A DNA stretch of 64,000 nt from PVC group bacterium (GCA_024231215.1 JAAEQR010000034.1:12668-76667), one strand, 5' to 3'; positions 457-43,110 are shown, counted from the first letter of the stretch. A program made the numbers and translations. The notes: generated by a model not told the origin, from the sequence alone.

Positions 457-686
457 TAATATTTGCTCCCGCTTTTTAGTTCACCTCGCAACAAAAGAGC
501 AAGTTTATCGGGGAAGATAATCCATGTTCCCCGCTCAACTCTCTGTATGCCAATCTTATATTTCCTAGCCCACGCAATTAGCGTAGGCCGGGAAACTCCT
601 GCTTCTCTCATTGCCTCTGTAACAGAAATAGCGTCTTCTGTTTCAAAGGCAGCTTCTTCCAACTGAATTCTTGAATTACCCCTCAT
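456..686 (-). CDS. small helix-turn-helix DNA-binding protein (MerR/excisionase-like)
   Basis: Internal Met start of track ORF 456..869 ([46 protein letters not shown]...); HTH-like segment; its TAA stop overlaps the recA ATG (TAATG coupling). Confidence 0.4.
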
Positions 687-1770
687 CTTTCTTATCCAAT
701 TTGTCAAATTCGTCAGCACACTTTTGCCAGATTGCATCATCACAATTACGGCATTCTGATTTGTTGCCATTATCTCTTCCGTAATCATGACCATATGGAC
801 AAGGATTATCTTCAGTGGGGCGAACCCTCGCTCTTTCTCTGCGAGTCCTTCTCTCGGAATCTGCATCATTCACTTCTACAACCTCGGCAGTCGAACCAGC
901 AACCGCGCCACGGTTTTGAAACGGGCTGGCGCCAACAGGTGCGTCTTTCGGCTCAGTGTCCACTGGTTTCTCCTCTTCTTCAACCTCTTGTGTTCCATAA
1001 TAAAGATTGCGAACCTCTTCATAAGTAGGAACAATAAGAAGTTCATCAAGGCTGTAAGTATGATCAAGAACATCTTCCTTGTAAGGTTCTCTGTCGAGAA
1101 AGTCTACCCTTTCATATTTGAAAAATTTACCAAACTGGTTATTAACCTGGATGGTTCTCATCTCAACTGTCTTGCCAATTTCCCGATCATAAAATATTAA
1201 AACCCCGTCACCTTTCTTAGACGAACCAGCTTCTTTGATTAGAGTGTTCTCGAAAAGGAAATAAGACTCTTCAAAAAGTTGAACCTTAGCTTCCGACTCG
1301 GGAGCATCCAGATTTATGATGTTGTAATAGCACCGATGTTTCGCCTGATGTTTCTTAATCATTTCCTTGTCTGCATCAGGGTCTTTCTCTAATTCATTTA
1401 ATTCTTCACAGATTGGGCATTTTCCTTTATTACCGCCGAAGGTCTTATCCAGACACAGAACTCTTTCTTCACTCGGGCCAACATTTTTGTGTACCCATAT
1501 ATCCAGGATATAATCTTCTTTCCCTGCCGGGACTTGCTGAGGATGATTCTTCGTTTTAACCCTGTACGGCAGAATATCTATTCTGTTGTAAACAGGATCA
1601 CTTGGTCTTTCACCAACTTCGGGTTTATAAAACAGATCTTTTCTATAACCGCCGATCAAATCCAGATCTAAAATCTGCCTTTTTCCGGAAAATCCATCCC
1701 CGGTAGCCTTTTTGTAATTATTCAGTAATCTTTCTTGTGCTTCTTTTACTCGTTCTTCTTTTGTACTCAT
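676..1770 (-). CDS. gp32-like zinc-binding ssDNA-binding protein (putative)
   Basis: 364-aa ORF; H-x12-C-x11-C-x2-C (HKNVGPSEERVLCLDKTFGGNKGKCPIC) matches the T4 gp32 His/Cys3 zinc-site spacing; acidic C-terminal tail (EEVEEEEKPVDTEPKD) as in SSBs; operon with recA. Confidence 0.45.
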   Translation of the reverse strand: MSTKEERVKEAQERLLNNYKKATGDGFSGKRQILDLDLIGGYRKDLFYKPEVGERPSDPVYNRIDILPYRVKTKNHPQQVPAGKEDYILDIWVHKNVGPSEERVLCLDKTFGGNKGKCPICEELNELEKDPDADKEMIKKHQAKHRCYYNIINLDAPESEAKVQLFEESYFLFENTLIKEAGSSKKGDGVLIFYDREIGKTVEMRTIQVNNQFGKFFKYERVDFLDREPYKEDVLDHTYSLDELLIVPTYEEVRNLYYGTQEVEEEEKPVDTEPKDAPVGASPFQNRGAVAGSTAEVVEVNDADSERRTRRERARVRPTEDNPCPYGHDYGRDNGNKSECRNCDDAIWQKCADEFDKLDKKDEG

Positions 1771-2434: not shown

Positions 2435-2935
2435 TTAATTTTTAATTTCAATAGAAGCAATTGTGTCATGTATTGCTCCCCCATGGGAAAATAAACCTAT
2501 TTTATAAACTTGGAATCCTCTTCCTTTTCCCATTACATTACTATGATATCCAAAAGTTATTATTCTGCCGTTCTTTTTTAAAATTCTCGGAACCTCATCT
2601 TTCAATCTTTTAAATGGGCTGGCCTTATTTCCTTTATAAAATTCCATGCTTTTTCTATACGAATAAGGTGGGTCAAGAAGAATAGTATCAAAAATTTTTC
2701 CTTTCCATTTCATAACAAGTTGTAATGCGTCTTCATGGAAATCGGCAAGAGCATCTTCATCTATATCATTTCGCACTTCATCAATATCAAGTTTTGTATA
2801 TCCAGAAAATAAATTCAGAGTCAATCCGACACATTCATTTTCAACCCATTTTCGTATAGGTCTTACTTTGAATGTATATTTATTCAAGGGACATTTTATG
2901 TAATCAAATTTTATTCTCTTTTCCACTTTACTCAA
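2435..2935 (-). CDS. DNA methyltransferase, amino-MTase type (N6-adenine/N4-cytosine; DPPY motif IV)
   Basis: 166 aa; LNLFSGYT (motif I-like) followed by DPPY; small phage-type MTase without an obvious TRD. Confidence 0.6.
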   Translation of the reverse strand: MSKVEKRIKFDYIKCPLNKYTFKVRPIRKWVENECVGLTLNLFSGYTKLDIDEVRNDIDEDALADFHEDALQLVMKWKGKIFDTILLDPPYSYRKSMEFYKGNKASPFKRLKDEVPRILKKNGRIITFGYHSNVMGKGRGFQVYKIGLFSHGGAIHDTIASIEIKN

Positions 2936-5900
2936 ACCTCTTTATGAAGTCACAGAAGTTCTTGATACCATCCCGAAACATTTCCTTGTTCTCAGGATTG
3001 TATATTGTTGAAGCAGGATGAATAACCCAACTGATAAAGCAACCATACTTTTCATTCCATTCCAACTCACCGCTCTTATTCATTATACCGCTTTCTTCAT
3101 CTGTAAAAAACTTAATTGAAGTGTTCCCACAAGCCAGAGCAACAAACGGTTCAATTCTTTCAAACTCATCGTCCAGCCACATAGAACATTTTTCTATATG
3201 CTTTTTTGTCGGGGTCTTTATTGTCCTTCCGGGATAGCATTTACAGACATTTGTTACATGGAAATCTCTTCGGGTAAAAGAATTATCTTCTACCTGTTCC
3301 CATAATTTCTTACCGGAATCTCCCACAAAACCTACGCCTGTACGGTCTTCATCCGCTCCAGGTGCTTCACCTATAATCATAATGTTCCGGGTAGAACGGC
3401 TCGGGAGGACAGGGAGAGTACATTCTCCTTCCAGTTGACACTCTTTGCATTCCAGTAATTCCGTGTTTTTGTACCTTGCCCTTTTTACAGGTTTCAACTT
3501 TAATCCTTCAAGTCTGCCCCTCAGTAAATCTTCTGCGAACCACATCCGGTGGCAGACAATGTTACCGCTTTTCTGAGGCATGTTTATTTTAATAAGAACA
3601 TATGAATCTTCTGAATGTTCTATCTCTTCTATATTCTCATTGTAATACGTTTTATCAAAAGAAAACTGGAGATCCCCTGTTTCATCTCTGAATAATACGC
3701 TTACACTGGCTTTTTTCCCGCTACTCCCTTTAAATGTACTAAGCTTTAATTCTTCTATTTTTCCGAAATAATACCTCATATTAGAGTCAATGTCGTATAC
3801 TTTTATGTCTTTTGCTTTTTCTATCTTTATTCCGGAACCATTTAAAAAATTGATAAATTTCTTATACTGATACAAACTATCCCGTACAAAAGAGAGTCCT
3901 GTGTACTCAGATAATCTATCGGCTTCTTCGTCGGTAATAGCCACATTATCATACGCATTTATAATGTCAAGTATATTAAGGAACCTTTTTGTCACTGGTT
4001 CTTTCTCTTCTGAACCCTCATAAAACCCCTTGGCTTCAAGCTTTTTAAAGCTTTTTGCGGTCTTTTCGCCAACACCTTTGATCTCTATAAACGGGGCATA
4101 AAGGATGTTATCTTTTATACTCCACAAGAACGGATCGCTTATCCCGACCTTCGGAAACCGCACATCTATCCCTAAACGGAAAGCTTCCTGAACGAATTCT
4201 GTCTTCTTCGCGTCTTTCTCTGTCCCGGACGCGCCGTATGTGAGAAGGGCGCATATAAACTCCGTGGGATAATTTTGTTTCAGATATTGATCCCAATACG
4301 TCAGCATTGTGTAAACAACTGAATGACTTTTATTAAACGAATACTTTCCATATTCTACAATATTATTCCAGAGGCCATAAGCCTGTTCGTCTGTCAAAGT
4401 TTTCTTCTCTACACACCCTTCCACGAATTGTTCCTCATATTTCCTGAGAGCATCTTTGCCTTTGCTCTTGGCAATATCTTTTCTTATCTTGTCACAAACA
4501 CCCCACTTTAATCCCGCGAGAAGGTTCGCAACCATCATAATCTGTTCTTGGTAAATAAGGAGACCGTAAGTGTCTTTCGTTATCTCGTCGTAAATATGGT
4601 GGAGCCCCGGAGTCTCTTCTAACCCTTTTTTTCTTTTTATATATAAATCGCTGATGCCACTGTTAAGCGGCCCTGGCCTGTAAAGAGCGGTGATGTCAAC
4701 TAAAGTGTTAAAGTTATCGACGCCAACCTGTTTACAATATTTTCGTAACCCCCGAGACCCCACTTGAAAACAGCCTACATTGTTCCCTTTACTGAACTCA
4801 CTGAAACACTTCTCATCATCCAAAGGGATTTCCTTAAAGTTTAAATCTACTCCACGGTTTTCTTTTATGAGCCTCTTAGTTTCCTCTAACACCGATAGCA
4901 TTGACAACCCGAGTACATCCAGCTTAATCAACCCAACATGTTCGATGTCGTCTTTGTCCCAATTTATTACCGGGTTCTTATCTTTATCAACAGTGAAAGC
5001 ACACCTCGTCCCTCCACGAAGGTCTTCATCTGAAATAACCAGGGCTGCTGCATGCACCCCTTTATTCCGGATAGTGCTTTCCATTTCAGCAGATATTTTT
5101 GCCACTTTAGGATATTTCCTGGCGAACCACTTTCCATCTTCAAACATTTCAAATGCTTCTTTGATTGTCTCTCCATAACCTTCATCGCCTTTCAGCCTTG
5201 ATATTATAGCTGAACACCCTCTATCCACATCAACGTAAGGCACATCAAACACTCTGGAGACATCTCTTAAAGCCTGTTTGCCTCCCATAACAGAAGTAGT
5301 GCTTACACTGTTTACATTCCACTCCCCATACAACTCTCCCAGATGATCTCGTATAAGGTGCCGTTTAACATCCGGAAAATCAATATCTATGTCAGGCAGA
5401 GAAATTCTGTCTGGATTTATAAATCTGGAAAACAACAGGTTATACTTTATAGGATCTACACCAGTAATGCCTATCAGATAACAAACAAGAGAGCCAGCAC
5501 TGGAACCCCTTCCCGGGGAAATAAATATATCATTCTTCTTACACCATTCTATAAGTTCCCATACAATCAAAAAATAACGGACAAAATCCTGTCTCACTAT
5601 TAGATTGATTTCCTCTTCAAGCCTTTCCTGATATGCGTCTTCTCCTTTCTTCCCTATCCTGTGCATTCCGCTTTCGCATAAATTTTTTAAGAAAAAGATT
5701 TCGTCTTCCCACGCTAAACTCTCAGGCAAAGGAAGATGAATCTTTTTCTCAGGTATTTTTGTGAACCCACTACACTTCTCCGCCACTTCCATCGTGTTTA
5801 TCAAAGCCCTTCGGCATTCTCTTGAAGAGAGAGCGCCCTGAGCCTCAAAACTTTCAATCATTTCTTCTCTGGTTTTCAAAAAATAACTTCCAGAATCTTT

Positions 5901-6602
5901 AAACTTCCACCTTTTCGGGTCTTTCCATTTCTTCTTAATCTGTACCGCGAGTAAAACTTCATGGTTCAGCACATCTTCACTATTAACAAAATGAGAATCG
6001 TTTGTCGCTATTAACGGCAAACTATACTTTTCTGAATACATTTGACATAATACATTAACATCTTTCTGCTCCTGAAAATTATGAGGCATGATTTCCAGGT
6101 AGAGATCTTCCGTGCTTTGGTCTATTAACCTTTTCAAAAAGTTTTCTCCCCATGGGAAAGAAAGGAAAGACGCGGAACAGGCAGTAGATATGATCAACCC
6201 TTCCCGGTTCTCCGCGAGAAGTTCTGGAGATATTCTCGGTCGGTAATAGAACCCTTCTATGTTTGACAGGGTAATAAGCTTAAGGAGATTGTTCCAGCCG
6301 ACCTCGTTCTTGGCAAACAAGGAAACATGAGCCCGTTTCTCTCCTTTTTCATGGAGAATAATATCTGGAACTATATATAACTCCGCACCGAAGATCGGTA
6401 TAATATTATTCTTTTCACATTCTTTTTGGAACTTAATCGCTCCATCCACGTTGCCATGGTCTGTCATTGCAAGATGGGTAAACCTCGCCCTCCTTGCCAC
6501 TGAAGCATATTTTTTATGAGAGCCAAACCCGTCTAAATACGAGTATTGTGAATGGCAATGTAGGTGACAAAAGTTTTGATCCATTTTAATATCCCAAAGC
6601 AC
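2928..6602 (-). CDS. dnaE: DNA polymerase III alpha subunit (DnaE-type, PHP domain) with C-terminal family-4 uracil-DNA glycosylase domain
   Basis: N-terminal PHP motif HLHCHSQYSYLDGFG...MTDHGNVDG; long polymerase core; C-terminal ~200 aa carry UDG family-4 motifs GEAPGADEDRTGVGFVGDSGKKL and HPAS plus four Cys. Likely true start is the second Met (MDQNF, ~6584). Confidence 0.85.
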   Translation of the reverse strand: MLWDIKMDQNFCHLHCHSQYSYLDGFGSHKKYASVARRARFTHLAMTDHGNVDGAIKFQKECEKNNIIPIFGAELYIVPDIILHEKGEKRAHVSLFAKNEVGWNNLLKLITLSNIEGFYYRPRISPELLAENREGLIISTACSASFLSFPWGENFLKRLIDQSTEDLYLEIMPHNFQEQKDVNVLCQMYSEKYSLPLIATNDSHFVNSEDVLNHEVLLAVQIKKKWKDPKRWKFKDSGSYFLKTREEMIESFEAQGALSSRECRRALINTMEVAEKCSGFTKIPEKKIHLPLPESLAWEDEIFFLKNLCESGMHRIGKKGEDAYQERLEEEINLIVRQDFVRYFLIVWELIEWCKKNDIFISPGRGSSAGSLVCYLIGITGVDPIKYNLLFSRFINPDRISLPDIDIDFPDVKRHLIRDHLGELYGEWNVNSVSTTSVMGGKQALRDVSRVFDVPYVDVDRGCSAIISRLKGDEGYGETIKEAFEMFEDGKWFARKYPKVAKISAEMESTIRNKGVHAAALVISDEDLRGGTRCAFTVDKDKNPVINWDKDDIEHVGLIKLDVLGLSMLSVLEETKRLIKENRGVDLNFKEIPLDDEKCFSEFSKGNNVGCFQVGSRGLRKYCKQVGVDNFNTLVDITALYRPGPLNSGISDLYIKRKKGLEETPGLHHIYDEITKDTYGLLIYQEQIMMVANLLAGLKWGVCDKIRKDIAKSKGKDALRKYEEQFVEGCVEKKTLTDEQAYGLWNNIVEYGKYSFNKSHSVVYTMLTYWDQYLKQNYPTEFICALLTYGASGTEKDAKKTEFVQEAFRLGIDVRFPKVGISDPFLWSIKDNILYAPFIEIKGVGEKTAKSFKKLEAKGFYEGSEEKEPVTKRFLNILDIINAYDNVAITDEEADRLSEYTGLSFVRDSLYQYKKFINFLNGSGIKIEKAKDIKVYDIDSNMRYYFGKIEELKLSTFKGSSGKKASVSVLFRDETGDLQFSFDKTYYNENIEEIEHSEDSYVLIKINMPQKSGNIVCHRMWFAEDLLRGRLEGLKLKPVKRARYKNTELLECKECQLEGECTLPVLPSRSTRNIMIIGEAPGADEDRTGVGFVGDSGKKLWEQVEDNSFTRRDFHVTNVCKCYPGRTIKTPTKKHIEKCSMWLDDEFERIEPFVALACGNTSIKFFTDEESGIMNKSGELEWNEKYGCFISWVIHPASTIYNPENKEMFRDGIKNFCDFIKRFE

Positions 6603-7779: not shown

Positions 7780-8097
7780 TTAAATGCCATTGGCTATCAA
7801 ATCATCTAAAATTTTGCTGGCATTATAATATTGTTCATGTGCATTTTCATTGTCACTTCCGGTATGCAAATAAAATTGTTGTAGAACATACAAAACATTT
7901 TTCAATTTTTTCTGCATTTCTGCTATTTTATCTTCGCCAACAGCACTTAATTCATGCTTATGCAAAATGCTGGCTTCCTTTTTAAAGTTTGCCCCACACG
8001 AATTACATTCCCATCTTTCGTTATAAGTCCCATTACTACTAATTGTTGGCTTATATTTTACTATCGAACAAGCACATCCACAATTTTGTTCTTCCAT
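7780..8097 (-). CDS. Cys-rich zinc-finger protein
   Basis: CGCAC...C-x2-C pairs (CNSCGANF); AAGGAG SD. Confidence 0.45.
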   Translation of the reverse strand: MEEQNCGCACSIVKYKPTISSNGTYNERWECNSCGANFKKEASILHKHELSAVGEDKIAEMQKKLKNVLYVLQQFYLHTGSDNENAHEQYYNASKILDDLIANGI

Positions 8098-8139
8098 TTT
8101 TTATCTCCTTTTCTTCGCACTTCGCATACGCCTTAGCCA

Positions 8140-8388
8140 TTAAATGAAATACTTGCTAAGCACTTCTTGCAATCGTTCTTTATCTAATTCCACAGTATAA
8201 CGTTCTTCGATCAAATTTATAGATTCTATCTCCGCAAGTACATCATCTAATTTGGCATATGTGGAAATTGCTCTTTTGTATTTTACATCTGTTTCCTCAA
8301 TTTTGTCCTCACACCACGTATGGTATCTGTCACCCTCGCCGTCGTCATCATACTGTATGTATATTTCGTCTAATAACATTTTGCTCAT
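8140..8388 (-). CDS. small acidic protein, paralog family member 1
   Basis: 82 aa; C-terminus ...LQEVLSKYFI shared with 9407..9664; similar to 8436..8687. Confidence 0.5.
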   Translation of the reverse strand: MSKMLLDEIYIQYDDDGEGDRYHTWCEDKIEETDVKYKRAISTYAKLDDVLAEIESINLIEERYTVELDKERLQEVLSKYFI

Positions 8389-8435
8389 CGCCTATCTCCT
8401 TTCGTTTATTCGCAACATCGCATATGCCTTAGCCA

Positions 8436-8687
8436 TTAGGGTAAATATTTGCTTTTAATTATCTCAAATTGTTGTCTGCTTATACGCATCATATCGTTAT
8501 CACGATGAGAATAATATTCCTCAAGCTCCGCAAAAACTTCCCCTAATTCGGTATATGATGAAATTGCTTGTGCTTTTTCTTTAGCATAATCTTTATATTT
8601 TATCCAAGAACCATCAGCATCTTCTTCAACATCTAATCTATGCCTATCCCAATCAAAACAATCTATACCTATCTCATACCTTTTCAT
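8436..8687 (-). CDS. small acidic protein, paralog family member 2
   Basis: 83 aa; SSYTELGEVFAELEE...KSKYLP parallels the other two paralogs. Confidence 0.5.
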   Translation of the reverse strand: MKRYEIGIDCFDWDRHRLDVEEDADGSWIKYKDYAKEKAQAISSYTELGEVFAELEEYYSHRDNDMMRISRQQFEIIKSKYLP

Positions 8688-8729
8688 TGCCTATCTCCTT
8701 TCCCCGCAACTTCACATATACCTGTACCA

Positions 8730-9377
8730 TTAAATGCCATTGTTGGCCTCGTCAAATAGGCACGGATGCCGAGCCTCGGTTTCACTGTGAACATCAAACG
8801 CACAATTATAAATATGTAGCCCTAAATCTGGATTAACTAAATTTCTAATAATTTGATCCTTCCTGTGCTTAATTTTGTACCCTGAAATATCAAAACCGAA
8901 TCCTTTACTGCCCTTTTTCCGTATATCAAATTTTTCACTTTTTTGAAATGAATTTGAAATTGAATAATTTGACCAAAAACAATGTCTGTCAATTATCTCT
9001 GAGGGTTCAACAAACGGCTTATAATATGGCTTTACATTTTCAACAACATATTTCCCTTTATAGAAATGCTTTAAAAAAACAATTTCTCCCCATAAATTCA
9101 TATCTGGAAAAACTGCATCATACATTTCAGCAATAGCACCCATCCTTCTTATGTCAGAATGGCTTTGACATGGTGGACTTGACCATATGAAATCGTAATC
9201 CTTGTAATTCTTTAATAAAAAATCATGTGCATCATCAACAACAACTGTATCATCAGGAAACAAATCTTTATATATTTCTGCTATCTCTGGATTTAGTTCA
9301 ACTGCTGTAACTTCTACACCCTCCCATAGTTTTCTATTACCGCCAATCCCAGCGTACAAGTTTAAAACTTTCTTCAT
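8730..9377 (-). CDS. compact DNA (cytosine-5)-methyltransferase-like protein
   Basis: 215 aa; motif I LYAGIGG, motif IV SSPPCQSHS (PCQ), motif VI VVENV; much shorter than typical Dcm-type enzymes. Confidence 0.6.
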   Translation of the reverse strand: MKKVLNLYAGIGGNRKLWEGVEVTAVELNPEIAEIYKDLFPDDTVVVDDAHDFLLKNYKDYDFIWSSPPCQSHSDIRRMGAIAEMYDAVFPDMNLWGEIVFLKHFYKGKYVVENVKPYYKPFVEPSEIIDRHCFWSNYSISNSFQKSEKFDIRKKGSKGFGFDISGYKIKHRKDQIIRNLVNPDLGLHIYNCAFDVHSETEARHPCLFDEANNGI

Positions 9378-11515: not shown

Positions 11516-12976
11516 TCATGTTCTTCCCATATTTGTAATTCTTCCATCCAGATACGGCTGTCCGCATTCCAAACACTGTAAAACCAAAGCTTCTTTGTTC
11601 GGCAATATACCTCTGTGCCGATCAACCAGAGTTCTTACTCTTATAGAATTATTTAATTTATCTTCCTCTGAACTGTTCAATGCCAGCGCCATCGTAACAT
11701 GGTTTAATTTCCTGGCATCTTCTGAAAGATCACTCTCTCTAATATCCCTGTCCAGTGTCTGCTTGTTGGAATGCGAAGCAGTTACCATTAATAAGTTCCT
11801 CTCCTGACCAATCGCCCTGTGTCCCATCCAGACAGAATCTATCTGGTGCCTTCTTTCCTCTTTAGTGTCCGGTTTACATATATCAGCATAATCTGTAACA
11901 ATCACGTCCGGAACAAAGTCTTCATAATATTCAAGATTGTCTAATATATTTCTCATATCGTCTGGGGTCGTGGATTTACTCGGGGCGCACTCTATCCTCA
12001 GCCTTGAGTTCTTAACGAAACCAGACATGGAATTGATCTTGGTATACACTTGATTATAATTCATAACAGGCTTGATAACTTTTCTTTTAAAGACATCGCC
12101 ATTCTGATCAAAGAAGGGGATTTCCACTTCTCTTTCACTCTCTTCTTCGTGAAAAGGGACAACTCCCCCGGTCAACCTCTGGTAAAATCTTAAATTCAAA
12201 TCATGTTTCGGCATCTCCCAAGAGAAGAATAAAACATTACATTTATTCAAAGTCGCCCACAAAGCCATTTCCATCAGCATGAATGTTTTACCCCGTTTTG
12301 CCGGGCCAATAACAGCAAGAAAGTCTCCCCGTCTTAAAGGCCTGATAAGGTCTCCTAACGCCCCAGGCAAGCGGAGAAGGGCGTTAGTTTGACCAAGAGC
12401 GTTCAGGGAGGTCATTATCTCTTCTGTGCTACTGTCCCAGAAATTAAACCCGTCTGACACAGTTTCTTCGACTCTCTTGAATTTGGCTATCTCTGCCTCT
12501 ACTGCCGTGTAGTCTCCGAGTAGCCGTAAACCTTTTATCCTTTCCTCAAGAATTTCAATGGCAGATCCCTTAAAATAATTCTTTGCCTTATCAACATTAT
12601 AATCAACATTATAGTGCTGATCCTCTTCCTCAAACCTGTCACTTATCCTTGATAAAAAAGTGTCTATTAATTCTATCTTTGATTCATTCGCTATAGCAGT
12701 CTTCTTTGCCTCGAACAGACTTTTGATGTCTTTAAGGGGGGCTTTTTTATACTTATCGTAATATTCTATACACCATTTAGCGACGGTCTTTGTATAAAAA
12801 ATATTGAAATATTCCGGTTGGTACATAGGTCTAATTCTTTTGATAAAATCTGTCGAAATAATCAATCCCAAAACAACATCCTGCTCTTCATTTTTATTTA
12901 TTTCTTGACTTTCAAAATTGATAGGCATGATTGTTTTCTTTATTTCTCCTATGTAAATTAACTCATACTGCACCAA
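11516..12976 (-). CDS. replicative DNA helicase, DnaB-like
   Basis: DnaB N-domain-like EQDVVLGLIISTDFIKRI; RecA-fold Walker A LAVIGPAKRGKTFMLMEMAL in the C-terminal half. Confidence 0.7.
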   Translation of the reverse strand: MVQYELIYIGEIKKTIMPINFESQEINKNEEQDVVLGLIISTDFIKRIRPMYQPEYFNIFYTKTVAKWCIEYYDKYKKAPLKDIKSLFEAKKTAIANESKIELIDTFLSRISDRFEEEDQHYNVDYNVDKAKNYFKGSAIEILEERIKGLRLLGDYTAVEAEIAKFKRVEETVSDGFNFWDSSTEEIMTSLNALGQTNALLRLPGALGDLIRPLRRGDFLAVIGPAKRGKTFMLMEMALWATLNKCNVLFFSWEMPKHDLNLRFYQRLTGGVVPFHEEESEREVEIPFFDQNGDVFKRKVIKPVMNYNQVYTKINSMSGFVKNSRLRIECAPSKSTTPDDMRNILDNLEYYEDFVPDVIVTDYADICKPDTKEERRHQIDSVWMGHRAIGQERNLLMVTASHSNKQTLDRDIRESDLSEDARKLNHVTMALALNSSEEDKLNNSIRVRTLVDRHRGILPNKEALVLQCLECGQPYLDGRITNMGRT

Positions 12977-12989
12977 TACTGTTAGGTGT

Positions 12990-13169
12990 TCATTTTTTCA
13001 CCTTTCCAACTTTCCCTATAAAAAATGACCAGATAAGAAAACACAAAAAGACACCCTTTGTATCATCTGCTGAAACCATGGCAAGTGACGGAGTAAAATA
13101 AAAAGCTTTCCAGTCAAACTTACTCTGCTTAAAACAATTGATTAAATATATTTCTATTTTTTTATTCAT
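12990..13169 (-). CDS. small hydrophobic protein (59 aa)
   Basis: Manually found: ATG overlaps the TGA of 13166..13813 (ATGA coupling), GGGGAGAA SD; not in track (<60 aa). Confidence 0.3.
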   Translation of the reverse strand: MNKKIEIYLINCFKQSKFDWKAFYFTPSLAMVSADDTKGVFLCFLIWSFFIGKVGKVKK

Positions 13170-13813
13170 TTTAATTCTCCCCTGTTATGTTCAAAAACTG
13201 CTATAGAAAAACCTCTCGGAGTAGCACTTCTGATATTTTTCGTCTTATCGCTTTTGCCCCCAAGTTTTTTATGCTGTCTTGAATAACCGGCTTCAGGAAT
13301 CACTGGGTTTTTCTCTGGCATAACAAACCCATTACCAGTCCACAAACAAGTTCTCTTCGGGTAAGCGTCCCTTGGTGCTATGTGTTCAGGCCAGTCAGGG
13401 TGCTGGTCGTCTTCCGGTAAGTACCCTCCATATTCAAAAGGGTCAAAAATATACTCTGGTTTCCTCCAATATGTTGAGAACGTACTTACCGGATTTTCAA
13501 CCATGTACGGACTTTTGTAACGATCAATTATTCTTAAACAACTTGATAAAAGAGTGAATGCTTCGACTGCTGCCTGTGGGCCTTTTGATTTAAAATGCGT
13601 TGCCCCGGAAACCGCCGTATGAGTGCATGGTGGGAATGCGAAAACGATACTTGGTGCAAAATCAGGGAAAAACTTGTTAACATCTGCCTGGATATGGTGA
13701 ATGTTGTCTTCATCCTCAGCCTTTTGTATATCAACACAATAACATTCATGTCCGGCGTCTGCCCATGGTTTAACCATGATCCCTGTATGATCACACAAGC
13801 TTAAAACCTTCAT
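13166..13813 (-). CDS. compact C5-cytosine methyltransferase-like protein (divergent motif I)
   Basis: 215 aa; motif IV FAFPPCTHTAVSG, motif VI MVENP, C-terminal motif X-like ATPRGFSIAVFEHN; motif I lacks G-x-G (LSLCDHTG). Confidence 0.5.
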   Translation of the reverse strand: MKVLSLCDHTGIMVKPWADAGHECYCVDIQKAEDEDNIHHIQADVNKFFPDFAPSIVFAFPPCTHTAVSGATHFKSKGPQAAVEAFTLLSSCLRIIDRYKSPYMVENPVSTFSTYWRKPEYIFDPFEYGGYLPEDDQHPDWPEHIAPRDAYPKRTCLWTGNGFVMPEKNPVIPEAGYSRQHKKLGGKSDKTKNIRSATPRGFSIAVFEHNRGELK

Positions 13814-13840: not shown

Positions 13841-15325
13841 CTAAACAGCAGCCATTTGGAACTTGTTTACTCCTCGATTCTTCTTTTTTTCTGCCCAATT
13901 CTGTCGCTGTTTTTCATGCTCTCTTTTTTCTCTTTCTCGGATCTCTGCTCCCACTTTATGTTCTTCATAAGCGGTTTTTGCATCCAGAATCTTTTCTTCA
14001 GATGGGTCTAAATCATAAGAATTACCGTTCGTCTGCTTCATCCAAATCACAAATTCTTTCCACAGCCAAAGTCCGTACAACTTATATATACCACCCTTTC
14101 GGAAGTCACTGAATTTTTTTTGTAAAAAATTTATATGCTGGGTATAAAATCCGTCACCCTTTATCAAAGGAAGGTTTATATATTTTCCAATTTTCTGCTC
14201 ATATAAGGCTTTTTGAGACACAATATAGTTAACACCCTTGACAAGCGCACAAAGCTCCGTATCGTTGATCTGAGAGCTTCTGAGAGCCTGTCTGTACAAC
14301 TTTAATACCCTTTCATCCTTAATTTTCTCCATTTTCAGGTCAGGGTCTTTATATAAATGTATCAGGGCGCAACTGCAACCATTTTTTTCATTTAATAACC
14401 ACGCTTTACAACTGCGGTATTGTTTACTTTTATTATTGTAATGTCCCTGTGCATCGGGGGTCTGGAGAAAGTCGGCTCTGTCTATTGCTTTGTAAAGTTC
14501 TTCCTCTCCCCACTCCCTGTGACCCATTTCAGCCGGGACTCCAAAATCTTCGAGGTGTTTAAAGTTTAAAGTTCTATGTCTTTTTATAAAAATACCTTTC
14601 TCAAGTTCTCCGAACATTTTTGCGGAATCCTGGTAGACTTTGGTATTTGTTTTATGGGTGATTAGATTTGATTTGGAATTCCAGTATTCGACATATTTGT
14701 TAGTCTCGTCTAACTTTTCGGCATTATTGATCTTTTTATCGGTAAAAAAAAGAGTGGCACAATTAAAAGACTTATCCGAAGACTCCGTAGGGTTTTCTTT
14801 TTCAGAAAACCCTATATCTTTTACGTTAGTAAAAGATACTTCCTTATTCTTATTATCTAATACTTTATTACTATAGGGCGAGTCGTCCGCATTCCGACCC
14901 GACCGAGAACCGGAAAACCCGTCATCCGGTGGGGCCTGATTATAGTCAATAAGGGTGTAATTTACCTCTTTTTCGTCTATATTCCACCGATCAAGGTGTT
15001 CTTTTATCACCTTTTTGTCCAAAACAGGTGTTTCTAACACATAATACCCATTAGATAAGAACCTTCCATTTGACCCTTTTATAGTATAATTGTACAAATA
15101 CCCGAATTCTTTCAGTTCTTTTATAGCCGATGAAACGCTGTCTTTGCCATCTTTTGATTTGTTTATGAGGTCTGTTCTCCATGCTTTCCAGTCGGGGGGT
15201 CTGCTGATCAGGTAGGTGTGAATGCCTTTTGCTTTCCAGGACAGGTTGCTGTCCTCGATGCAATCCAGCTTAATTGTTTTGTATGATTCACTTTTATTTA
15301 CTCGTAGAATTTTTAGGTCTGCCAT
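13841..15325 (-). CDS. hypothetical protein, possibly replication-associated (N-terminal winged-helix-like region)
   Basis: 494 aa, between helicase and primase; no catalytic motif recognised. Confidence 0.35.
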   Translation of the reverse strand: MADLKILRVNKSESYKTIKLDCIEDSNLSWKAKGIHTYLISRPPDWKAWRTDLINKSKDGKDSVSSAIKELKEFGYLYNYTIKGSNGRFLSNGYYVLETPVLDKKVIKEHLDRWNIDEKEVNYTLIDYNQAPPDDGFSGSRSGRNADDSPYSNKVLDNKNKEVSFTNVKDIGFSEKENPTESSDKSFNCATLFFTDKKINNAEKLDETNKYVEYWNSKSNLITHKTNTKVYQDSAKMFGELEKGIFIKRHRTLNFKHLEDFGVPAEMGHREWGEEELYKAIDRADFLQTPDAQGHYNNKSKQYRSCKAWLLNEKNGCSCALIHLYKDPDLKMEKIKDERVLKLYRQALRSSQINDTELCALVKGVNYIVSQKALYEQKIGKYINLPLIKGDGFYTQHINFLQKKFSDFRKGGIYKLYGLWLWKEFVIWMKQTNGNSYDLDPSEEKILDAKTAYEEHKVGAEIREREKREHEKQRQNWAEKKKNRGVNKFQMAAV

Positions 15326-15478
15326 ATTTTTGCTCCTTGATATTAAATTGCTCTATAAACTAAAAAACCCCGAAACGCAGTTATTTTTTGTCAAATTGTA
15401 AGAAGGTGGGAAAATTGAGAGAACAAAAAATTCTGCATTACAGGGTGTATGTGTGAATTATAATTCCGATTTAAAAAA

Positions 15479-15536
15479 TTCTCGGGGGCTATTATTAAAA
15501 AGGGTTTTTTGGTTTACGGAAAGTCTCCCCCGAGAA
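15479..15536 (-). terminator. GC-rich inverted repeat with minus-strand U-tract (terminator or attenuator-like)
   Basis: TTCTCGGGGG ... CCCCCGAGAA, 10-bp arms; TTTTTTAA follows on the minus strand; lies in the 5' leader of 13841..15325, downstream of a candidate promoter. Confidence 0.35.
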
Positions 15537-16091: not shown

Positions 16092-16316
16092 TTATGGTCT
16101 TTCTATCAACAATCTTCTTTTAGCTGGCTCAGGCCATTTTCTTCTTACCATAGATTTTAAATTATTGCTGTAGTTCTGTCTCTGGTATAGCCTGTTATAT
16201 TCCCTCCTCTCTTCTTCTTTCTCTTCTGCCTTTTTTGATAAATATTCAACTGTCCACATCTCATTCATTTGCTTAATATACTTCTCAATATCATCAGTTC
16301 TTTCTTCTAAAGTCAT
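16092..16316 (-). CDS. hypothetical basic protein
   Basis: 74 aa, coupled upstream of the primase gene (start overlaps by 4 nt). Confidence 0.35.
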   Translation of the reverse strand: MTLEERTDDIEKYIKQMNEMWTVEYLSKKAEEKEEERREYNRLYQRQNYSNNLKSMVRRKWPEPAKRRLLIERP

Positions 16317-17224
16317 ACACTACCCCTGAATATTTTTTTAACGAATCTGTCTGCCTCTAATTGGGAAAAATCTCCCGGGTCTTCAACACCATCGAGGGAA
16401 ATAATATTAACCCCGACTCCTAAACCGGATAATTCAGAGCCTAATCTAAACGCTTGTGCTTTAGCTTGTTTTTCTGTGTCAAAAAGGATAGTAACCTTTT
16501 TAAACCTGTTCGCTAATAACAGCACTTGTCTGTCAGTGTAACTAATCCCAAAGGTACAAACGGAGTGATCGCCCAGCCTCCACTTATCGAAGATCCCTTC
16601 AACGACAATACAATGATCTCCGGGGACGCTGTCTATTCCATAAACGATATTCTTGTAGTGTACAACTTCATCTTTCTTGGAACAGCTTTTGTATCTCAAG
16701 TCAGTCTGGTCAGTATACCCTCTTCCCTGGAAAGATACAAGCTTATTTTTAAAATAGATAGGAATTATTATCCGGAACTTATAATCCCCCAAATGTCCAG
16801 TGGAATATACTTTATATTTCTCTATAAGCCTGTTAGGATCAAAGCCTCTGCCGTAAAGATACTGGAATGCTTTCTTGTTCAAGGGTTCTTCCTGACCTTT
16901 TGGCAAAATGAGAGAAGTTCTCGCAGCCTCCCTTGGCTTGTGCTGTTTTAAAAGGTGATCACGGACATTCAGTTCCAGTTTATAATTCAAATGTACATCG
17001 AGCCAGTTCTCCCCGACAAGGTGTAGCATTGCTTCGTTCAGGGGATGATAATGGCACTTAAAACAAAAAAACCCAAACTTTTCGGGGTGTATTGCTCCGA
17101 TTTTTTTACCGGAGCTGGAGCCACAATTCGGGAACGGACATTGCACCTCATAATACCCCCGAGAGTTTGGGCCTGAATATTGAACGTCGTAATCATTGAA
17201 AATTCTGGGAAAATCATATATCAT
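16313..17224 (-). CDS. dnaG: DNA primase, DnaG-type (CHC2 zinc finger + TOPRIM)
   Basis: Zinc finger CPFPNCGSSSGK...HPEKFGFFCFKCHYH; TOPRIM CIVVEGIFDKW, DTEKQ and SLDGVEDPGD. Confidence 0.8.
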   Translation of the reverse strand: MIYDFPRIFNDYDVQYSGPNSRGYYEVQCPFPNCGSSSGKKIGAIHPEKFGFFCFKCHYHPLNEAMLHLVGENWLDVHLNYKLELNVRDHLLKQHKPREAARTSLILPKGQEEPLNKKAFQYLYGRGFDPNRLIEKYKVYSTGHLGDYKFRIIIPIYFKNKLVSFQGRGYTDQTDLRYKSCSKKDEVVHYKNIVYGIDSVPGDHCIVVEGIFDKWRLGDHSVCTFGISYTDRQVLLLANRFKKVTILFDTEKQAKAQAFRLGSELSGLGVGVNIISLDGVEDPGDFSQLEADRFVKKIFRGSV

Positions 17225-24320: not shown

Positions 24321-25220
24321 TTAATCATTTTCTTTATAATCTACATTGTTATTATAATGTAGATTATTAGAATATTCATTTTCACAAAATTCAATGCAAG
24401 TTTCACAAAGTAATAATCCCTCATACGCCTCTAAATCATCAACTTGATGATCAGTGTCGCAAAATTCGCATTTTGTGACAACATTTTTATCAGCGTATTT
24501 TGATTTATTACTTTTTTTACCGTAAACTTGACCAGTATATTTATTATAATCATAACCACTTCCATAAACACTCCCGCAAAATCGATCATAATAATCGTTT
24601 GACATATACTTATTTTTATAAGTATATTTCTCTTGTTTATAAGTAGTGTTGGAATAATAAATATTTTTGTCTTTTTCAAAATCACCAAAAGAAAATAAAT
24701 ATCCTTTTTCGTCAAGTGCTATAACTCTAGATCCTTTTAAAGATATTTTCAACAATTTTTTAATATGATCTTTTTCAAAATCACAATTAGAAAAATTTGC
24801 TAAAATGTCTTTCACGAAAATTTGAGAATCTGACAAATTTTCATTTTTTTTGTCAGTAATGGAGATAACTCCATTGTGTGCAAAACCTTTTTCGCTGATA
24901 ATTTCAGTACTTTGTAATAATGAAATATTGTCAGTGATAGGAAAAGGATGACAATTTTCCGCCTTTACTTTTCCCGCGGTTGCTATCCTAGCGTGAATAA
25001 CTATACTGACATCCTGTTCATGTAATCCAAAATCAAAAAGTTTTGCATTCAAACTTTTCCTTAATGCTTTCGCACTTGAAAAACCTTTTTTAATAAATAC
25101 TCCTTTACTGGGAATATTAAACATATAACCAGCGCCATCGGGATTATTTATCAAACAATTTTTAACAATACTGTTATCCGGTAAAAATTGCTTTTTCGGT
25201 TTGTAAATAATAATACACAT
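24321..25220 (-). CDS. class-II glutamine amidotransferase-like (Ntn hydrolase, YafJ-type) protein with C-terminal zinc ribbon
   Basis: N-terminal Met-Cys (MCIIIYKP; Cys2 nucleophile after Met removal); HARIATAG fits the H-x-R-x-A-T-x-G motif of GATase-II; C-terminal CEFCDTDH...CETCIEFC. Confidence 0.5.
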   Translation of the reverse strand: MCIIIYKPKKQFLPDNSIVKNCLINNPDGAGYMFNIPSKGVFIKKGFSSAKALRKSLNAKLFDFGLHEQDVSIVIHARIATAGKVKAENCHPFPITDNISLLQSTEIISEKGFAHNGVISITDKKNENLSDSQIFVKDILANFSNCDFEKDHIKKLLKISLKGSRVIALDEKGYLFSFGDFEKDKNIYYSNTTYKQEKYTYKNKYMSNDYYDRFCGSVYGSGYDYNKYTGQVYGKKSNKSKYADKNVVTKCEFCDTDHQVDDLEAYEGLLLCETCIEFCENEYSNNLHYNNNVDYKEND

Positions 25221-25249
25221 AATAGTTAACCCTTTTTAATAATAAATTT

Positions 25250-25302
25250 AAGATTTATAAAAATCTTATACCTAGCTATCAATAATAAAAATTGACAGCT
25301 AG
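25250..25302 (-). promoter_or_regulatory. early-gene promoter/hairpin cassette (hairpins A 25250-25267, B 25272-25302)
   Basis: Same A/B hairpins as 24258..24310, one mismatch in B's right arm. Confidence 0.5.
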
Positions 25303-25316
25303 CTACAAAATTTCAA

Positions 25317-26615
25317 TTAAATTCCCTTTTCAATACAAGCTTGCAAAAATTGCTTGTATTTTAATTTTCTAGCCATTTCAAGAACATTTTGCCAGTTCAT
25401 TTTTTGAATTGACATTATACTATCATTTTCGGCGATAATAGCAATCAAATTAGTTAATTGCATAAATCCAATTAAAGAATTTATTTTTAATGTTCCGCGC
25501 CATAATCTAAACTCAATTGTTGAAATGGGTATTAAATTAACACTTTGATAGCGTCCTTGCTTGACATTTTTTTCTTTAATGCCAGTGACAAGCTTTTTAT
25601 TTAATTTTCCTAGATCTTCATTTTTATGACAATAATTCAGATTATTTCTTTTTGAGAAAAGAAATAAATGTTGCCACAATTTCTCGAAAATTAAACAAAT
25701 TTTAGTTGCTGACAATTCATAATTTGAAAAATATTGACGATTTACATGGATATGAAATCCACAATTTCCCGAATTATGAGAAACGGCATTATAATCACGA
25801 CATATTTCAACTAATTTTTGTAAAGGGAATTTATTGACAAAAAAATCTAGAGTGCAAGGTTGTGAACAAATTTCAATTCCTAGATCTGACAATGAACCGT
25901 CTGTTTTTAAATAAAAATATTTTTCATTTTCACTTAAATTATATAATTCATAAACTAAATCGGGTACATTATCAATTTTTTCAATCTCTAGCTCCCAACC
26001 TAAAAACAAGTCAGTTGCTTTTTTTTGTGAAATGGAATGAAAAGTCATTCTATTCGGTGTATAATCATAATTATGTAAGTGTTCAATGCACCCATGATCA
26101 TTATAGCAATCTTCACAATAAGATCGGTGACATGATTCACAATAATAAGATTGATCATCGTGATATAAATCACCACAACGTGAACACGTAAAGTATTCTT
26201 CTAGACAATTTTCGCATAAACAATGATCATTATTATAATGATAATGATCATTGTCCCGATGTATATCACATTCACAACTATCACAAACTAGGTAATCATT
26301 TTCATAACAAGTTTGACAAACTATTCTATTTCCATCATTTATAGAAATAGAATCATCATTAAGATGAACATTTCCGCAATCGTCACACTCAAAAAATAAT
26401 TCCTCAAAACATTCTTCACAATAATTTTTTCTGTTAATTCGCTGTAGATTTTCCCTATCTCTTTCAAAATGTTCCTTACAATGACTACACTTAAAAACAT
26501 TGTTTTTAAAACATTCTGAACAATAAGAAAAATCCTCATTGTGATATTCAGTTACAACTTGTCCACAACTAGAACAAACTTTTTCCGCTTGTACTTCTTT
26601 TTCCTCTTTTTCCAT
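25317..26615 (-). CDS. Amidoligase_2-family-like protein with N-terminal Cys-rich zinc-ribbon repeats
   Basis: N-terminal ~190 aa hold more than ten C-x2-C pairs; the C-terminal half has GWELEIE, KTDGSL..GIEICSQP and CGFHIHV, resembling amidoligase (GS-like) motifs. Confidence 0.45.
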   Translation of the reverse strand: MEKEEKEVQAEKVCSSCGQVVTEYHNEDFSYCSECFKNNVFKCSHCKEHFERDRENLQRINRKNYCEECFEELFFECDDCGNVHLNDDSISINDGNRIVCQTCYENDYLVCDSCECDIHRDNDHYHYNNDHCLCENCLEEYFTCSRCGDLYHDDQSYYCESCHRSYCEDCYNDHGCIEHLHNYDYTPNRMTFHSISQKKATDLFLGWELEIEKIDNVPDLVYELYNLSENEKYFYLKTDGSLSDLGIEICSQPCTLDFFVNKFPLQKLVEICRDYNAVSHNSGNCGFHIHVNRQYFSNYELSATKICLIFEKLWQHLFLFSKRNNLNYCHKNEDLGKLNKKLVTGIKEKNVKQGRYQSVNLIPISTIEFRLWRGTLKINSLIGFMQLTNLIAIIAENDSIMSIQKMNWQNVLEMARKLKYKQFLQACIEKGI

Positions 26616-27652: not shown

Positions 27653-28139
27653 TTTAATAATTATAAAATGACTTTATGTAAAAACATTATAAATAATGTT
27701 TTTACAACTAATTACATTGAAATCTGAAATATACAATTAAAAAATGCATATCGCTTGTAATTAGATTTTAGGGTTTTTATTATGTTAAAGGGTTTTGATT
27801 GGGATTACTTTATTTGATTTACTTGCTTTTTGCAAATTTCCGGTTTGCCCGTTTTCAATCAATCAAGATGTTTAAAACATCTTTTTTTTCATCCGTATAT
27901 TTTCAAAGATCAATAGTTAAAAACAACTATTTTGAAATAAACATTTAACATATAAAATCATTAAATATTTATTTACTAACTGTATATAGTATCGCTATAT
28001 ATAGTCAATTTGTCAATAGCTATTTTAAAAAAATTGCCTTTTTTTAGAAAAAAATTCAATAAGTTAGTCTAGCCTAATTTAGCTAATTATAACACTAATT
28101 AGAAAGTAGTAACACGATTTATCCTACACAATTTAAGAA

Positions 28140-28610
28140 ATTACAATAATTACATAATCCAGGATAATTGAATCATTTTAAATAATTACTAAAAATGAAT
28201 AAAATGGCTATAATCGGGATAACAAGCATTTTAAATAATTGATCTATTTTAAGTAATTACAATAAATGAAGTAAGTACAGAAAATGATTATAATAAACAA
28301 TTACTAAAATTAAACTAATTACAGAAAATGAATAAAATACCAGTATCATAATAAACAATTACAATAATTTAAGTAATTACAAAAAATGAACAGAACAACC
28401 ATTTTCCATAATTACAAAAAATGAAATAAATAACCTGGTTTTAATAAATTGAATCATTTTAAATAATTACTAAAAATAGACAAAATAAGCCAATACCATT
28501 TTAAACAATTACTTAAAATGAATAAATGAAAAAACTTACAAAATACTACAAACAATTACAATAAGTACTTAAAATGAATAAAATGAAGTAATTATTAAAA
28601 ATGTTAAAAA
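28140..28610. repeat. array of about 12 degenerate direct repeats, core AATTAC(T/A)AAAAATGAATAAA
   Basis: Copies near 28186, 28255, 28300, 28314, 28358, 28375, 28410, 28465, 28507, 28554, 28573, 28593; a longer ~30-bp unit TTGAATCATTTTAAATAATTACTAAAAAT occurs at 28168 and 28449; ORF-free. Confidence 0.75.
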
Positions 28611-28870
28611 AAGCTATAGAGTAGATATAAACAATCATATAGACCTTGCTATAATATACCCTCATACTGTATATAAGACACGCCATAAGCATATAGAATA
28701 CTCTATACCCATATACTATAGAGTGCTTAATATAATGGCTATAGAAGGGTATATATTAAGCCATATAGAGTGTCATATATAATAATGGCTTAAGAAGGGG
28801 ATATATTAAGGATGTAAGCTGATTGACGGCTTAAGAGTGGTATATAAAGACATATAGCGATATTATAACC
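28610..28870. repeat. cluster of (C/T)ATATAGAG-type short motifs and three ~29-bp direct repeats
   Basis: AATGGCTATAGAAGGGTATATATTAAGCC (28734-28762), AATGGCTTAAGAAGGGGATATATTAAGGA (28783-28811), CGGCTTAAGAGTGGTATATAAAGAC (28826-28850); at least 6 copies of nTATAGnG. Confidence 0.6.
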
Positions 28871-29082: not shown

Positions 29083-29160
29083 GGGGATCCCCCGCTTAAG
29101 CCATCCGAACATAACCATCCGCTTAAGCCATCCGAACATAGCCATCGCTTAAGCCATAAA
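29083..29160. repeat. GC-rich palindrome GGGGGATCCCCC followed by 2.6 x 27-bp direct repeats (CGCTTAAGCCATCCGAACATAACCATC)
   Basis: Repeats at 29093-29119, 29120-29145 and a partial copy at 29146-29160, immediately upstream of the first rightward promoter. Confidence 0.7.
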
Positions 29161-29174
29161 AACAGAAAAAAGTG

Positions 29175-35027: not shown

Positions 35028-35452
35028 TGAATATAGAAAGATATGAGAACCCACTGATAATAGCTGGTCACGGAATACGCTTATCTGGCGCGATAGATTT
35101 ATTCCACGAATTGTTAGACAAGTTAAATATCCCCGTAGTTACAACCTTTAATGGATTTGATATAGTAGCTTCTGATCATCCGAATTTTGCAGGAAGAATA
35201 GGAACCATGGGTACTCCCGAAGGGAATAAGATATTAAGGGAAGCGGATCTGGTTTTGTGTATAGGGACTCGGAACAATGTCAGGCAAATAGGTTATAAGA
35301 AAGAGGCCTTCGCCAAGAGTGCAAGAAAAGTGGTTCTTGTGGATGTGGATGAAGATGAATTATATAAAACTGGCGTTGGTTTAAAAGTGAGAAGGTTCTG
35401 TTGCATGGATGCGAAACAATTTATTCAGGAGTGTTTGGATTACGATGATTGA
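35027..35452 (+). CDS. TPP-dependent enzyme, central domain subunit
   Basis: PLIIAGHGIRLSGA...LNIPVVTTFNGFDIVASDHPNFAGRIGTMGT...ADLVLCIGTR aligns with the ALS central domain; TGA overlaps the next ATG (ATGATTGA). Confidence 0.7.
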   Translation: MNIERYENPLIIAGHGIRLSGAIDLFHELLDKLNIPVVTTFNGFDIVASDHPNFAGRIGTMGTPEGNKILREADLVLCIGTRNNVRQIGYKKEAFAKSARKVVLVDVDEDELYKTGVGLKVRRFCCMDAKQFIQECLDYDD

Positions 35453-36463: not shown

Positions 36464-36478
36464 AAGAGAGGTATAATT

Positions 36479-38300: not shown

Positions 38301-38301
38301 C

Positions 38302-43109: not shown

Positions 43110-43110
43110 T

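Follow-up and report, generated by a model that had tools for sequence, protein, structure and literature searches.

Why would a replicative DNA polymerase carry a uracil-DNA glycosylase (UDG) at its C terminus, and what would such a domain do there? The question is raised by a gene in a 64,000-nucleotide stretch of DNA filed under PVC group bacterium (GCA_024231215.1, JAAEQR010000034.1:12668-76667), here called the window. The window is part of an 89,976-bp source contig, the other ~26 kb of which lie outside the analysis. Our scans covered about 65 of the window's 97 open reading frames (ORFs) of at least 50 amino acids (aa), including roughly half of the structural region and a minority of the small ORFs. 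An earlier note, made from the sequence, had described the gene as a DnaE-type polymerase III (Pol III) alpha subunit fused to a family 4 UDG. We conclude that its product is the replicase of a tailed phage that has not been cultivated, with a C-family polymerase joined to a UDG in one polypeptide. That the two parts form a single protein is close to certain. As to function, we favor active, replication-coupled uracil excision together with an added structural or DNA-binding role, a reading to which we assign a probability of roughly 60%.

The ORF announced in the earlier note is present as a single frame of 1,224 codons (2928-6602, from a GTG at 6602), on the minus strand, a point that the note had left unstated. 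The plus-strand translation of the same interval is rich in stops, and the minus-strand frame is continuous. An in-frame ATG at 6584, with the GTG upstream of it, yields a 1,218-aa product identical to NCBI MCP4648730.1 ('MAG: DNA polymerase III subunit alpha [PVC group bacterium]'); this ATG is the probable translation start. Residue numbers nonetheless follow the 1,224-aa frame throughout. All motifs quoted earlier are found in it, namely, HLHCHSQYS at residue 13, TDHGN at 47, GEAPGADEDRTGVGFVGDSGKKL at 1078, and HPAS at 1195, as are the four cysteines of the C-terminal part (Cys 1052, 1055, 1122, and 1139).

Pfam and NCBIfam domain matches, with E values well outside what chance would produce, bear out the DnaE-type Pol III alpha identity. 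The models PF02811, PF07733, and PF17657 score 117, 248, and 154 bits against Pfam cut-offs of 26, 24, and 22, respectively, and the NCBIfam model of the Pol III alpha superfamily (TIGR00594) matches residues 11-854 with 761 bits (cut-off, 434). Every NCBIfam bacterial DnaE equivalog, in turn, scores under its cut-off (e.g., 745.8 versus 1002). Because of these scores, and because the C terminus is a UDG, the protein is DnaE-type but cannot be called orthologous to the replicase subunit of cells. In the PHROGs collection, residues 7-950 match phrog_405, a family of phage DNA polymerases.

The catalytic residues of the polymerase part are in place. The palm contains the Asp triad, D404 and D406 (in PDIDID) and D562 (in KLDVLGL), which we take to correspond to E. 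coli D401, D403, and D555. In the PHP domain, none of nine metal-ligand positions is missing (H15, H17, D24, H49, E74, H92, C142, D202, and H204), and all nine columns are at least 90% conserved among 72 relatives. We take these nine residues, from Mycobacterium tuberculosis DnaE1 and Taq, to be the metal ligands of an exonuclease-competent DnaE, and with the full set present the PHP domain is probably a proofreader. Since the polymerase aspartates and the nine PHP ligand residues are both present, polymerase, PHP, and UDG activities are plausibly combined in this one protein.

The region beyond the fingers was examined in an AlphaFold2 model of residues 560-1224, built from 72 aligned sequences (mean predicted local distance difference test score [pLDDT], 91.9; predicted template modeling score, 0.76), in which the sole low-confidence loop is 858-865. 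In Foldseek searches of the PDB, full-length Pol III alpha structures (4IQJ, 2HPI, and 3E0D from Thermus aquaticus, 7PU7 from M. tuberculosis, and 5FKV from E. coli) align over ~500 to 560 columns, from the fingers to the OB fold, and E. coli alpha truncated at ~917 aligns over only ~340. The fingers lead into a helix-hairpin-helix (HhH) domain, with IEIKGVGEKTA at 839, within which the NCBIfam DnaE models end (~854-862) and which itself ends in the low-confidence loop. After a helical linker comes an OB unit of five strands with an inserted helix (beta1-3, helix, and then beta4-5). Modeled alone (pLDDT, 86), the OB region matches RPA, archaeal single-stranded DNA (ssDNA)-binding protein (SSB), and the OB fold of M. 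tuberculosis DnaE1 (7PU7; TMq, 0.48); it was detected by structure only, the protein having no Pfam OB or HHH_6 match. The earlier note had named an OB or tau-binding domain as what might be found in place of a UDG fold. Structure prediction instead sets the OB fold in front of a genuine UDG, with a junction of pLDDT >90. As modeled, the domain order is PHP, palm/thumb, fingers, HhH, helices, OB, and UDG, and the UDG sits where bacterial Pol III alpha has its C-terminal, tau-binding domain.

Between the HhH domain and the OB fold lies a family-conserved peptide, [YF][FL]xFS[LF] (here EYTGLSF, residues 899-905; ~3888-3908, minus strand). It is a candidate clamp-binding motif that could possibly recruit the host clamp, and the internal beta-clamp-binding motif of E. 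coli alpha presumably sits at roughly this place. Another candidate for such a motif, the loop at 858-865 (KGFYEG), was dropped; it corresponds to the GGxF element that E. coli alpha has in its HhH domain.

The last ~180 aa are a UDG of family 4 type by hidden Markov model (HMM), by match to solved family 4 enzymes, and by fold, as the earlier note had proposed. PF03167 matches residues 1073-1210 (E value, 2e-25; 89.9 bits versus a cut-off of 24.3), and the NCBIfam models UDG_fam4 and Arch_udg match residues 1047-1215 (E values, ~1e-26). The structures 4ZBY (Sulfolobus tokodaii), 1UI1 (Thermus thermophilus), and 1L9G (Thermotoga maritima) align over ~183 columns, with target TM scores of 0.81 to 0.84 and root mean square deviations of 1.8 to 2.0 Å. 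When the domain is aligned to the UDGs of these three species, the CxxC, GEAPG, FVG, TNVxKC, fourth Cys, and HPA positions all match. The UDG is divergent, yet family 4 is its best match by sequence and structure. GEAPG (1078-1082), the stacking F1092, N1118, and HPAS (1195-1198, with H1195) are intact, and from the sequence we infer that the enzyme is catalytically active. C1052 and C1055 (the CxxC pair), C1122, and C1139 are invariant or nearly so among relatives and are putative 4Fe-4S ligands. No second UDG copy is present in the window. The earlier note had also considered that the fusion might serve to tolerate or exploit dU-containing DNA; this is unlikely, because the excision site is intact and would be incompatible with a dU genome. 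We rejected UdgX-type covalent chemistry: the protein contains no RRIH and thus lacks the KRRIH loop with its crosslinking His109, the corresponding segment reads GRTIKTP, and the UdgX model TIGR03914 gives 73 bits against a cut-off of 190.

Is the fusion peculiar to this contig? A homologue search over 5.8 billion proteins (JGI, ENA, NCBI, and Logan sources) yielded 120 best homologues at 40 to 70% identity, some 110 of which carry the PHP, pol3_alpha, finger, and UDG Pfam domains. With the OB and UDG region (residues 901-1224) as the query, HMMER was run exhaustively over 1.84 billion cluster representatives and gave 137 clusters (50% identity) at E values of ≤1e-30. In nearly all of the 150 best, the match reaches the protein C terminus, and many of the proteins are 1,080 to 1,300 aa long, the shorter ones being mostly fragments from short contigs. 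Carriers of the fusion all come from metagenomic, viral, or metagenome-assembled genome (MAG) contigs, none from isolates or GenBank phages, and relatives are present in IMG/VR. By tblastn, 1,469 GenBank phage records match DnaE (~33% identity, residues ~5-900), none of which covers ≥80% of the query or reaches the UDG; megablast of window positions 1-25000 gave no match to GenBank phages. In a set of one genome per species (185,579 species), the OB and UDG arrangement occurs in a few MAG contigs only, and the other matches are ordinary stand-alone UDGs at 27 to 36% identity. The fusion is a conserved trait of an uncultivated phage lineage and not an artifact. Database entries label such proteins either 'DNA polymerase III subunit alpha' or 'uracil-DNA glycosylase family 4.'

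Three further matches were looked at individually. P0226 is a genuine stand-alone UDG that is closely related, and its upstream gene is unrelated. P0177 was considered as a split form, with a stand-alone UDG beside a dnaE fragment, and rejected; its contig is 1.3 kb long with a coverage of 1.7, and it is most likely a frameshifted fusion. In BFVD, a 906-aa 'DnaE' of an uncultured phage (A0A6J5RHV5) matches over ~198 columns, a span the size of a UDG domain for which the aligned part of the query is unreported; it may carry the same fusion.

Not all relatives have kept the catalytic residues. Glu, Asn, and His are all retained in 111 of 140 full-length relatives; 27 are degenerate, deviating from at least one of the three, and 2 have no UDG domain. 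Typical changes are deletion of motif A (e.g., 'VNET--SLN') and replacement of Asn by Ser, His, or Thr and of His by Ser or Asn, and almost all degenerate UDGs retain the four cysteines. (Examples are P0010, P0013, P0015, P0017, P0046, P0047, and ~20 others.) In a neighbor-joining tree built on the polymerase core, the degenerate relatives fall at scattered positions, with six in one clade, and Fitch parsimony counts ~22 changes, a rough estimate from p-distances. Because Glu, Phe, Asn, and His are intact here and in ~80% of relatives, catalysis appears to be under selection in most lineages, this one included. Since the fold and the four cysteines persist in the relatives that have lost these residues, a role independent of catalysis is also probable for the domain.

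Inteins are common among the relatives (P0016, P0040, P0110, P0116, P0002, and others with PF14890), and some contain HNH or Vsr-type endonuclease domains. Two different inteins lie exactly at highly conserved UDG motifs, one in P0016 immediately following GEAPG (GEAPG/C...HN/S) and one in P0040 at the third Cys, a putative Fe-S ligand (...HN/CFPS; KC/P).

Coupling of UDGs to polymerases is known for family A (phage fusions) and family B (the poxvirus holoenzyme and PCNA-tethered UDGs); its occurrence in family C would be new, though not categorically so. The poxvirus holoenzyme (vaccinia E9-A20-D4; mpox F8-A22-E4) resembles the present protein in that a UDG is integral to a viral replicase, and there the UDG adds processivity independently of catalysis. 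It differs in that the UDG is of family 1 and is held in trans via a bridging subunit, the polymerase is of family B, and the virus is eukaryotic. Full-text literature searches turned up no fusion of a C-family polymerase to a UDG, the precedents retrieved being PolA-UDG and the poxvirus complex, which agrees with the earlier note's impression that the architecture is uncharacterized for DnaE.

Phage PolA-UDG proteins (SPO1-like and SP15/YerA41/phiLo-like, active; N4-like, inactivated; PDB 9QHS) likewise carry a family-4-type UDG in cis on a phage replicase, occur in active and degenerate versions, and have been proposed to act in co-replicative excision and/or processivity. Cryo-electron microscopy and assays of a phage PolA-UDG showed that template dU is excised ahead of the polymerase and that the UDG takes up the position that the mpox holoenzyme gives to its UDG subunit (bioRxiv 10.1101/2025.03.26.645540); no Fe-S cluster is mentioned there for the domain. 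The N4-like PolA has an inactivated family 4 UDG, proposed to be a processivity module (PMC10201439), and Kazlauskas and Venclovas proposed a processivity role for the UDG in SPO1 and T5 (PMC3201878). These polymerases belong to family A and carry the UDG N-terminally, next to the 3'-5' exonuclease, whereas here the polymerase is of family C and the UDG is C-terminal, after the OB fold. A further difference is that the scanned window ORFs gave no sign of PolX, of a ligase, or of a genome with modified T. Our UDG scores 72.6 bits to 4ZBX versus 30.5 bits (E value, 2e-6) to the PolA-fused 9QHS, and phrog_17 matches it with an E value of 6e-6. Since the UDG is nearer to cellular family 4 enzymes, sits at the opposite terminus, and is joined to a non-homologous polymerase, we regard the fusion as independent and convergent.

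The two halves of the protein compare with cellular counterparts in a similar way. Bacterial Pol III alpha has the same domain order through the OB fold, the same Asp triad, and, as in Taq and M. tuberculosis, the full PHP ligand set, but ends in a tau-binding domain where this phage-encoded protein has a UDG. Stand-alone family 4 UDGs (1UI0 UDGA, 1L9G TM0511, and 4ZBX) have the fold, four cysteines, and motifs in common with it at ~26 to 29% identity, but they are separate proteins, whereas here the UDG is a domain of a 1,218-aa replicase. Viral C-family polymerases diverge from E. coli alpha past the fingers domain (PMC3201878). DnaE-like polymerases of GenBank phages (Streptomyces, Bacillus, and Mycobacterium phages) have a homologous core without the C-terminal UDG, and phage 0305phi8-36 encodes a UDG and a Pol III as separate genes, with no fusion.

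How might such a replicase use its UDG? Because the domain is tethered in cis beside an ssDNA-binding OB fold, it would remove uracil at the fork. The uracil could stem from misincorporated dUMP, from deaminated cytosine, or from a host-raised dUTP pool, and excision might strike either the template shortly before it enters the active site or the nascent duplex shortly after it leaves. Abasic sites produced in this way would pass to host base excision repair or to phage recombination proteins, namely, the UvsY-like mediator and gp32-like SSB encoded here or the RecA-like proteins of relatives. In its second role, without catalysis, the UDG could be a DNA-binding or processivity element or a docking module that replaces the lost tau-binding domain.

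Several points weigh against this reading. The domain misses the curated family 4 cut-offs (91.1 versus 125.3 bits for TIGR00758; 92.4 versus 250 bits for NF040953), and its activity, Fe-S binding, and substrate preference are all things that we infer. Approximately one-fifth of the relatives manage without the catalytic residues; the DnaE-UDG family as such therefore does not depend on catalysis. The window scans revealed no phage-encoded enzyme for the downstream steps of base excision repair, and the scanned ORFs gave no match to a clamp, clamp loader, tau, dUTPase, thymidylate synthase, AP endonuclease, PolX, or ligase. Finally, C-family polymerases are, as far as is known, blocked by abasic sites, and excision on the template would therefore create a replication block, unlike in PolA; it would act as a stall signal rather than leave a bypassable lesion. 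A stall signal would, speculatively, fit the recombination genes nearby.

The alternative that survives best, although we consider it unlikely, is that the UDG is mainly non-catalytic, a processivity or DNA-clamping element or a docking platform standing in for the tau domain (with, for example, the phage DnaB-like helicase or SSB as partner), and that excision is vestigial or secondary. It draws on the scattered loss of catalytic residues in 27 of 140 relatives that keep the fold and four cysteines, on the fact that the UDG fills precisely the slot of the tau-binding domain, and on the lack of any clamp or clamp loader match among the scanned ORFs. It also has precedents in the processivity function of vaccinia D4 with A20 and in the UDG-like domains of the SPO1, T5, and N4 PolA proteins (PMC3201878; PMC10201439). 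What speaks for excision instead is the intact Glu, Phe, Asn, and His set here and in ~80% of relatives. The two roles are, moreover, compatible, neither excluding the other, and the reading that we prefer contains both.

Somewhat more doubtful is a read-ahead sensor, in which template-strand uracil in ssDNA would be bound or excised and the polymerase would stall, so that deaminated cytosine is not copied and recombination restarts the fork. Family 4 UDGs act on ssDNA, and archaeal family-B polymerases stall at uracil in a comparable manner. The UDG directly follows an OB fold of ssDNA-binding type across a confidently modeled junction, PolA-UDG reads dU ahead of the fork, and recombination proteins are encoded nearby, both here and in relatives. 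An abasic site in ssDNA would, however, be a hazardous intermediate, and the sensor is a sub-case of replication-coupled excision rather than a true alternative to it. An elaborated form, tentative to the same degree, would have the tail of OB fold and Fe-S UDG scan the template, excise U, and stop synthesis, hand the fork to UvsX/UvsY/gp32-type recombination, and replace tau as the link to the helicase. If true, polymerase-coupled uracil sensing would have arisen convergently a third time, after the archaeal PolB pockets and phage PolA-UDG, and the Fe-S domain would, to our knowledge, be the first to be described for any polymerase of family C.

We think it improbable that the genome is T-modified, with a modified uracil derivative in place of thymine and a UDG that polices unmodified U, as has been proposed for PolA-UDG of the SPO1, SP-10, SP-15, and YerA41 types. 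Active PolA-UDG fusions are indeed linked to T-modified phages, and the window has a gene cluster of sugar-modification type and a glutamine amidotransferase/amidoligase pair. Yet no thymidylate synthase-like dUMP hydroxymethylase, 5-hydroxymethyldeoxyuridine kinase, aGPT-Pplase, dCTP deaminase, or dUTPase is found among the scanned ORFs, three DNA methyltransferases are present instead, one relative has an ordinary ThyX beside the polymerase, and the sugar cluster resembles an auxiliary set for surface glycans. There is next to no chance that a frameshift or mis-assembly joined neighboring dnaE and udg genes: although a low-coverage contig (L009, 1.7) does betray an assembly artifact, it is the opposite one, a gene broken within the OB region, whereas the fusion recurs in more than 100 independent homologues at 40 to 70% identity from JGI, ENA, NCBI, and Logan, and the reading frame and the modeled OB-UDG junction here are continuous and confident, which rules out the sequencing-derived join that the earlier note had allowed for.

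Table 1. Domains of the DnaE-UDG polymerase and other features of the window
Feature	Coordinates	Strand	Basis
Whole DnaE-UDG gene	2928..6584	minus	ATG 6584-6582, TAA stop 2930-2928
PHP domain, residues ~7-290	5733..6584	minus	Pfam PF02811 at 13-151, E 1e-33
Palm/thumb core, residues 305-565	4908..5690	minus	Pfam PF07733 (DNA_pol3_alpha), E 1e-73
Fingers, residues 568-733	4404..4901	minus	Pfam PF17657 (DNA_pol3_finger), E 3e-45
HhH/beta-binding-type domain, residues ~734-860	4023..4403	minus	NCBIfam, AlphaFold2 model, Foldseek
Helical linker, residues ~861-935	3798..4022	minus	DSSP of model, family consensus
OB-fold domain, residues ~936-1025	3528..3797	minus	AlphaFold2 models and Foldseek
Family-4-type UDG domain, residues ~1046-1224	2931..3467	minus	HMM, alignment, Foldseek, motifs
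gp32-like ssDNA-binding protein	676..1770	minus	Pfam gp32, E 5.5e-9
DnaB-like replicative helicase	11516..12976	minus	Pfam DnaB_C
DnaG/Toprim-like primase	16313..17224	minus	Toprim_2 and DNAG_N, E ~1e-3, below Pfam cut-offs
Thiamine pyrophosphate (TPP) enzyme, N-terminal piece	34509-35027	plus	profile 3-165
TPP enzyme, middle piece	35027-35452	plus	profile 197-331
TPP enzyme, C-terminal piece	35409-35999	plus	profile 352-502

The window is a segment of a tailed-phage genome with 37% GC (Table 1). Besides the genes listed, its minus-strand replication module encodes a UvsY-like protein, an initiator-like helix-turn-helix protein, an SNF2 helicase, and a sigma-like protein, and structural genes on the plus strand encode a large terminase, portal, scaffold, and major head protein. 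The DnaB-like helicase, which also neighbors DnaE-UDG in the relatives L006, L007, and L008, is the probable replisome partner of the polymerase. Three relatives on contigs of 74 to 103 kb have phage-like neighborhoods, in which a DnaB-like helicase is encoded upstream of DnaE-UDG and RecA-like proteins are encoded downstream. In L008, ThyX (Thy1; 8027-8803) lies two genes upstream of DnaE-UDG, and in L006 a Ro60/TROVE-like protein (14119-15531) is encoded directly downstream. Polymerase-bearing contigs have been binned in MAGs labeled 'PVC group bacterium' and 'Candidatus Thorarchaeota archaeon' (MCP4648730.1; P0012 and L011). Given the phage structural genes, these labels probably reflect mis-binned viral contigs and give no host assignment.

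Some further features of the window deserve mention. The replication module has three DNA methyltransferase genes (2435-2935, 8730-9377, and 13166-13813, minus strand); one overlaps the polymerase stop codon, and one encodes a 215-aa C5-cytosine methylase that matches the N-terminal third of its profile. Between the divergent modules, an AT-rich, ORF-free region (28130-28611) contains at least nine imperfect direct copies of a ~20- to 40-nucleotide (nt) unit with the core TAAGTAATTACAAAAAATGAA; this iteron-like array may mark an origin of replication or have a regulatory function. Another unit, of 27 nt, occurs in three tandem copies at 29092-29171. At 24321-26615, on the minus strand, an ORF resembling class-II glutamine amidotransferases (weakly, below the Pfam cut-off) adjoins an Amidoligase_2 ORF.

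An auxiliary metabolic cluster of sugar-modification type occupies 33514-44245 on the plus strand. It encodes a TPP enzyme, an HpcH/HpaI-like aldolase, S-adenosylmethionine (SAM) methyltransferases (including one of FkbM type), a radical SAM/SPASM protein, an NAD-dependent epimerase/dehydratase, and a DegT-family aminotransferase, and it looks like a pathway for modified or branched amino-sugar biosynthesis. The TPP enzyme (34509-35999) is acetolactate-synthase-like by NCBIfam, and its assignment as a phosphonopyruvate decarboxylase was dropped. It is spread over three consecutive ORFs in different frames, which could reflect two frameshifts (a pseudogene or an assembly error) or a naturally split enzyme.

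What the fusion means reaches beyond this one phage. Conserved in family C, it would be a further independent case of polymerase-coupled UDG, suggesting that viruses are generally under selection to remove uracil during fork progression. The occurrence of active and inactivated UDGs on one scaffold is a natural experiment in which catalytic and structural roles, such as processivity or docking, can be told apart. The protein further indicates how a phage DnaE can do without a tau-binding domain, and it brings a putative 4Fe-4S domain into a replicase of bacterial type. A single chain with polymerase, PHP proofreading, and UDG functions could also interest enzyme engineers, for example, for carry-over control.

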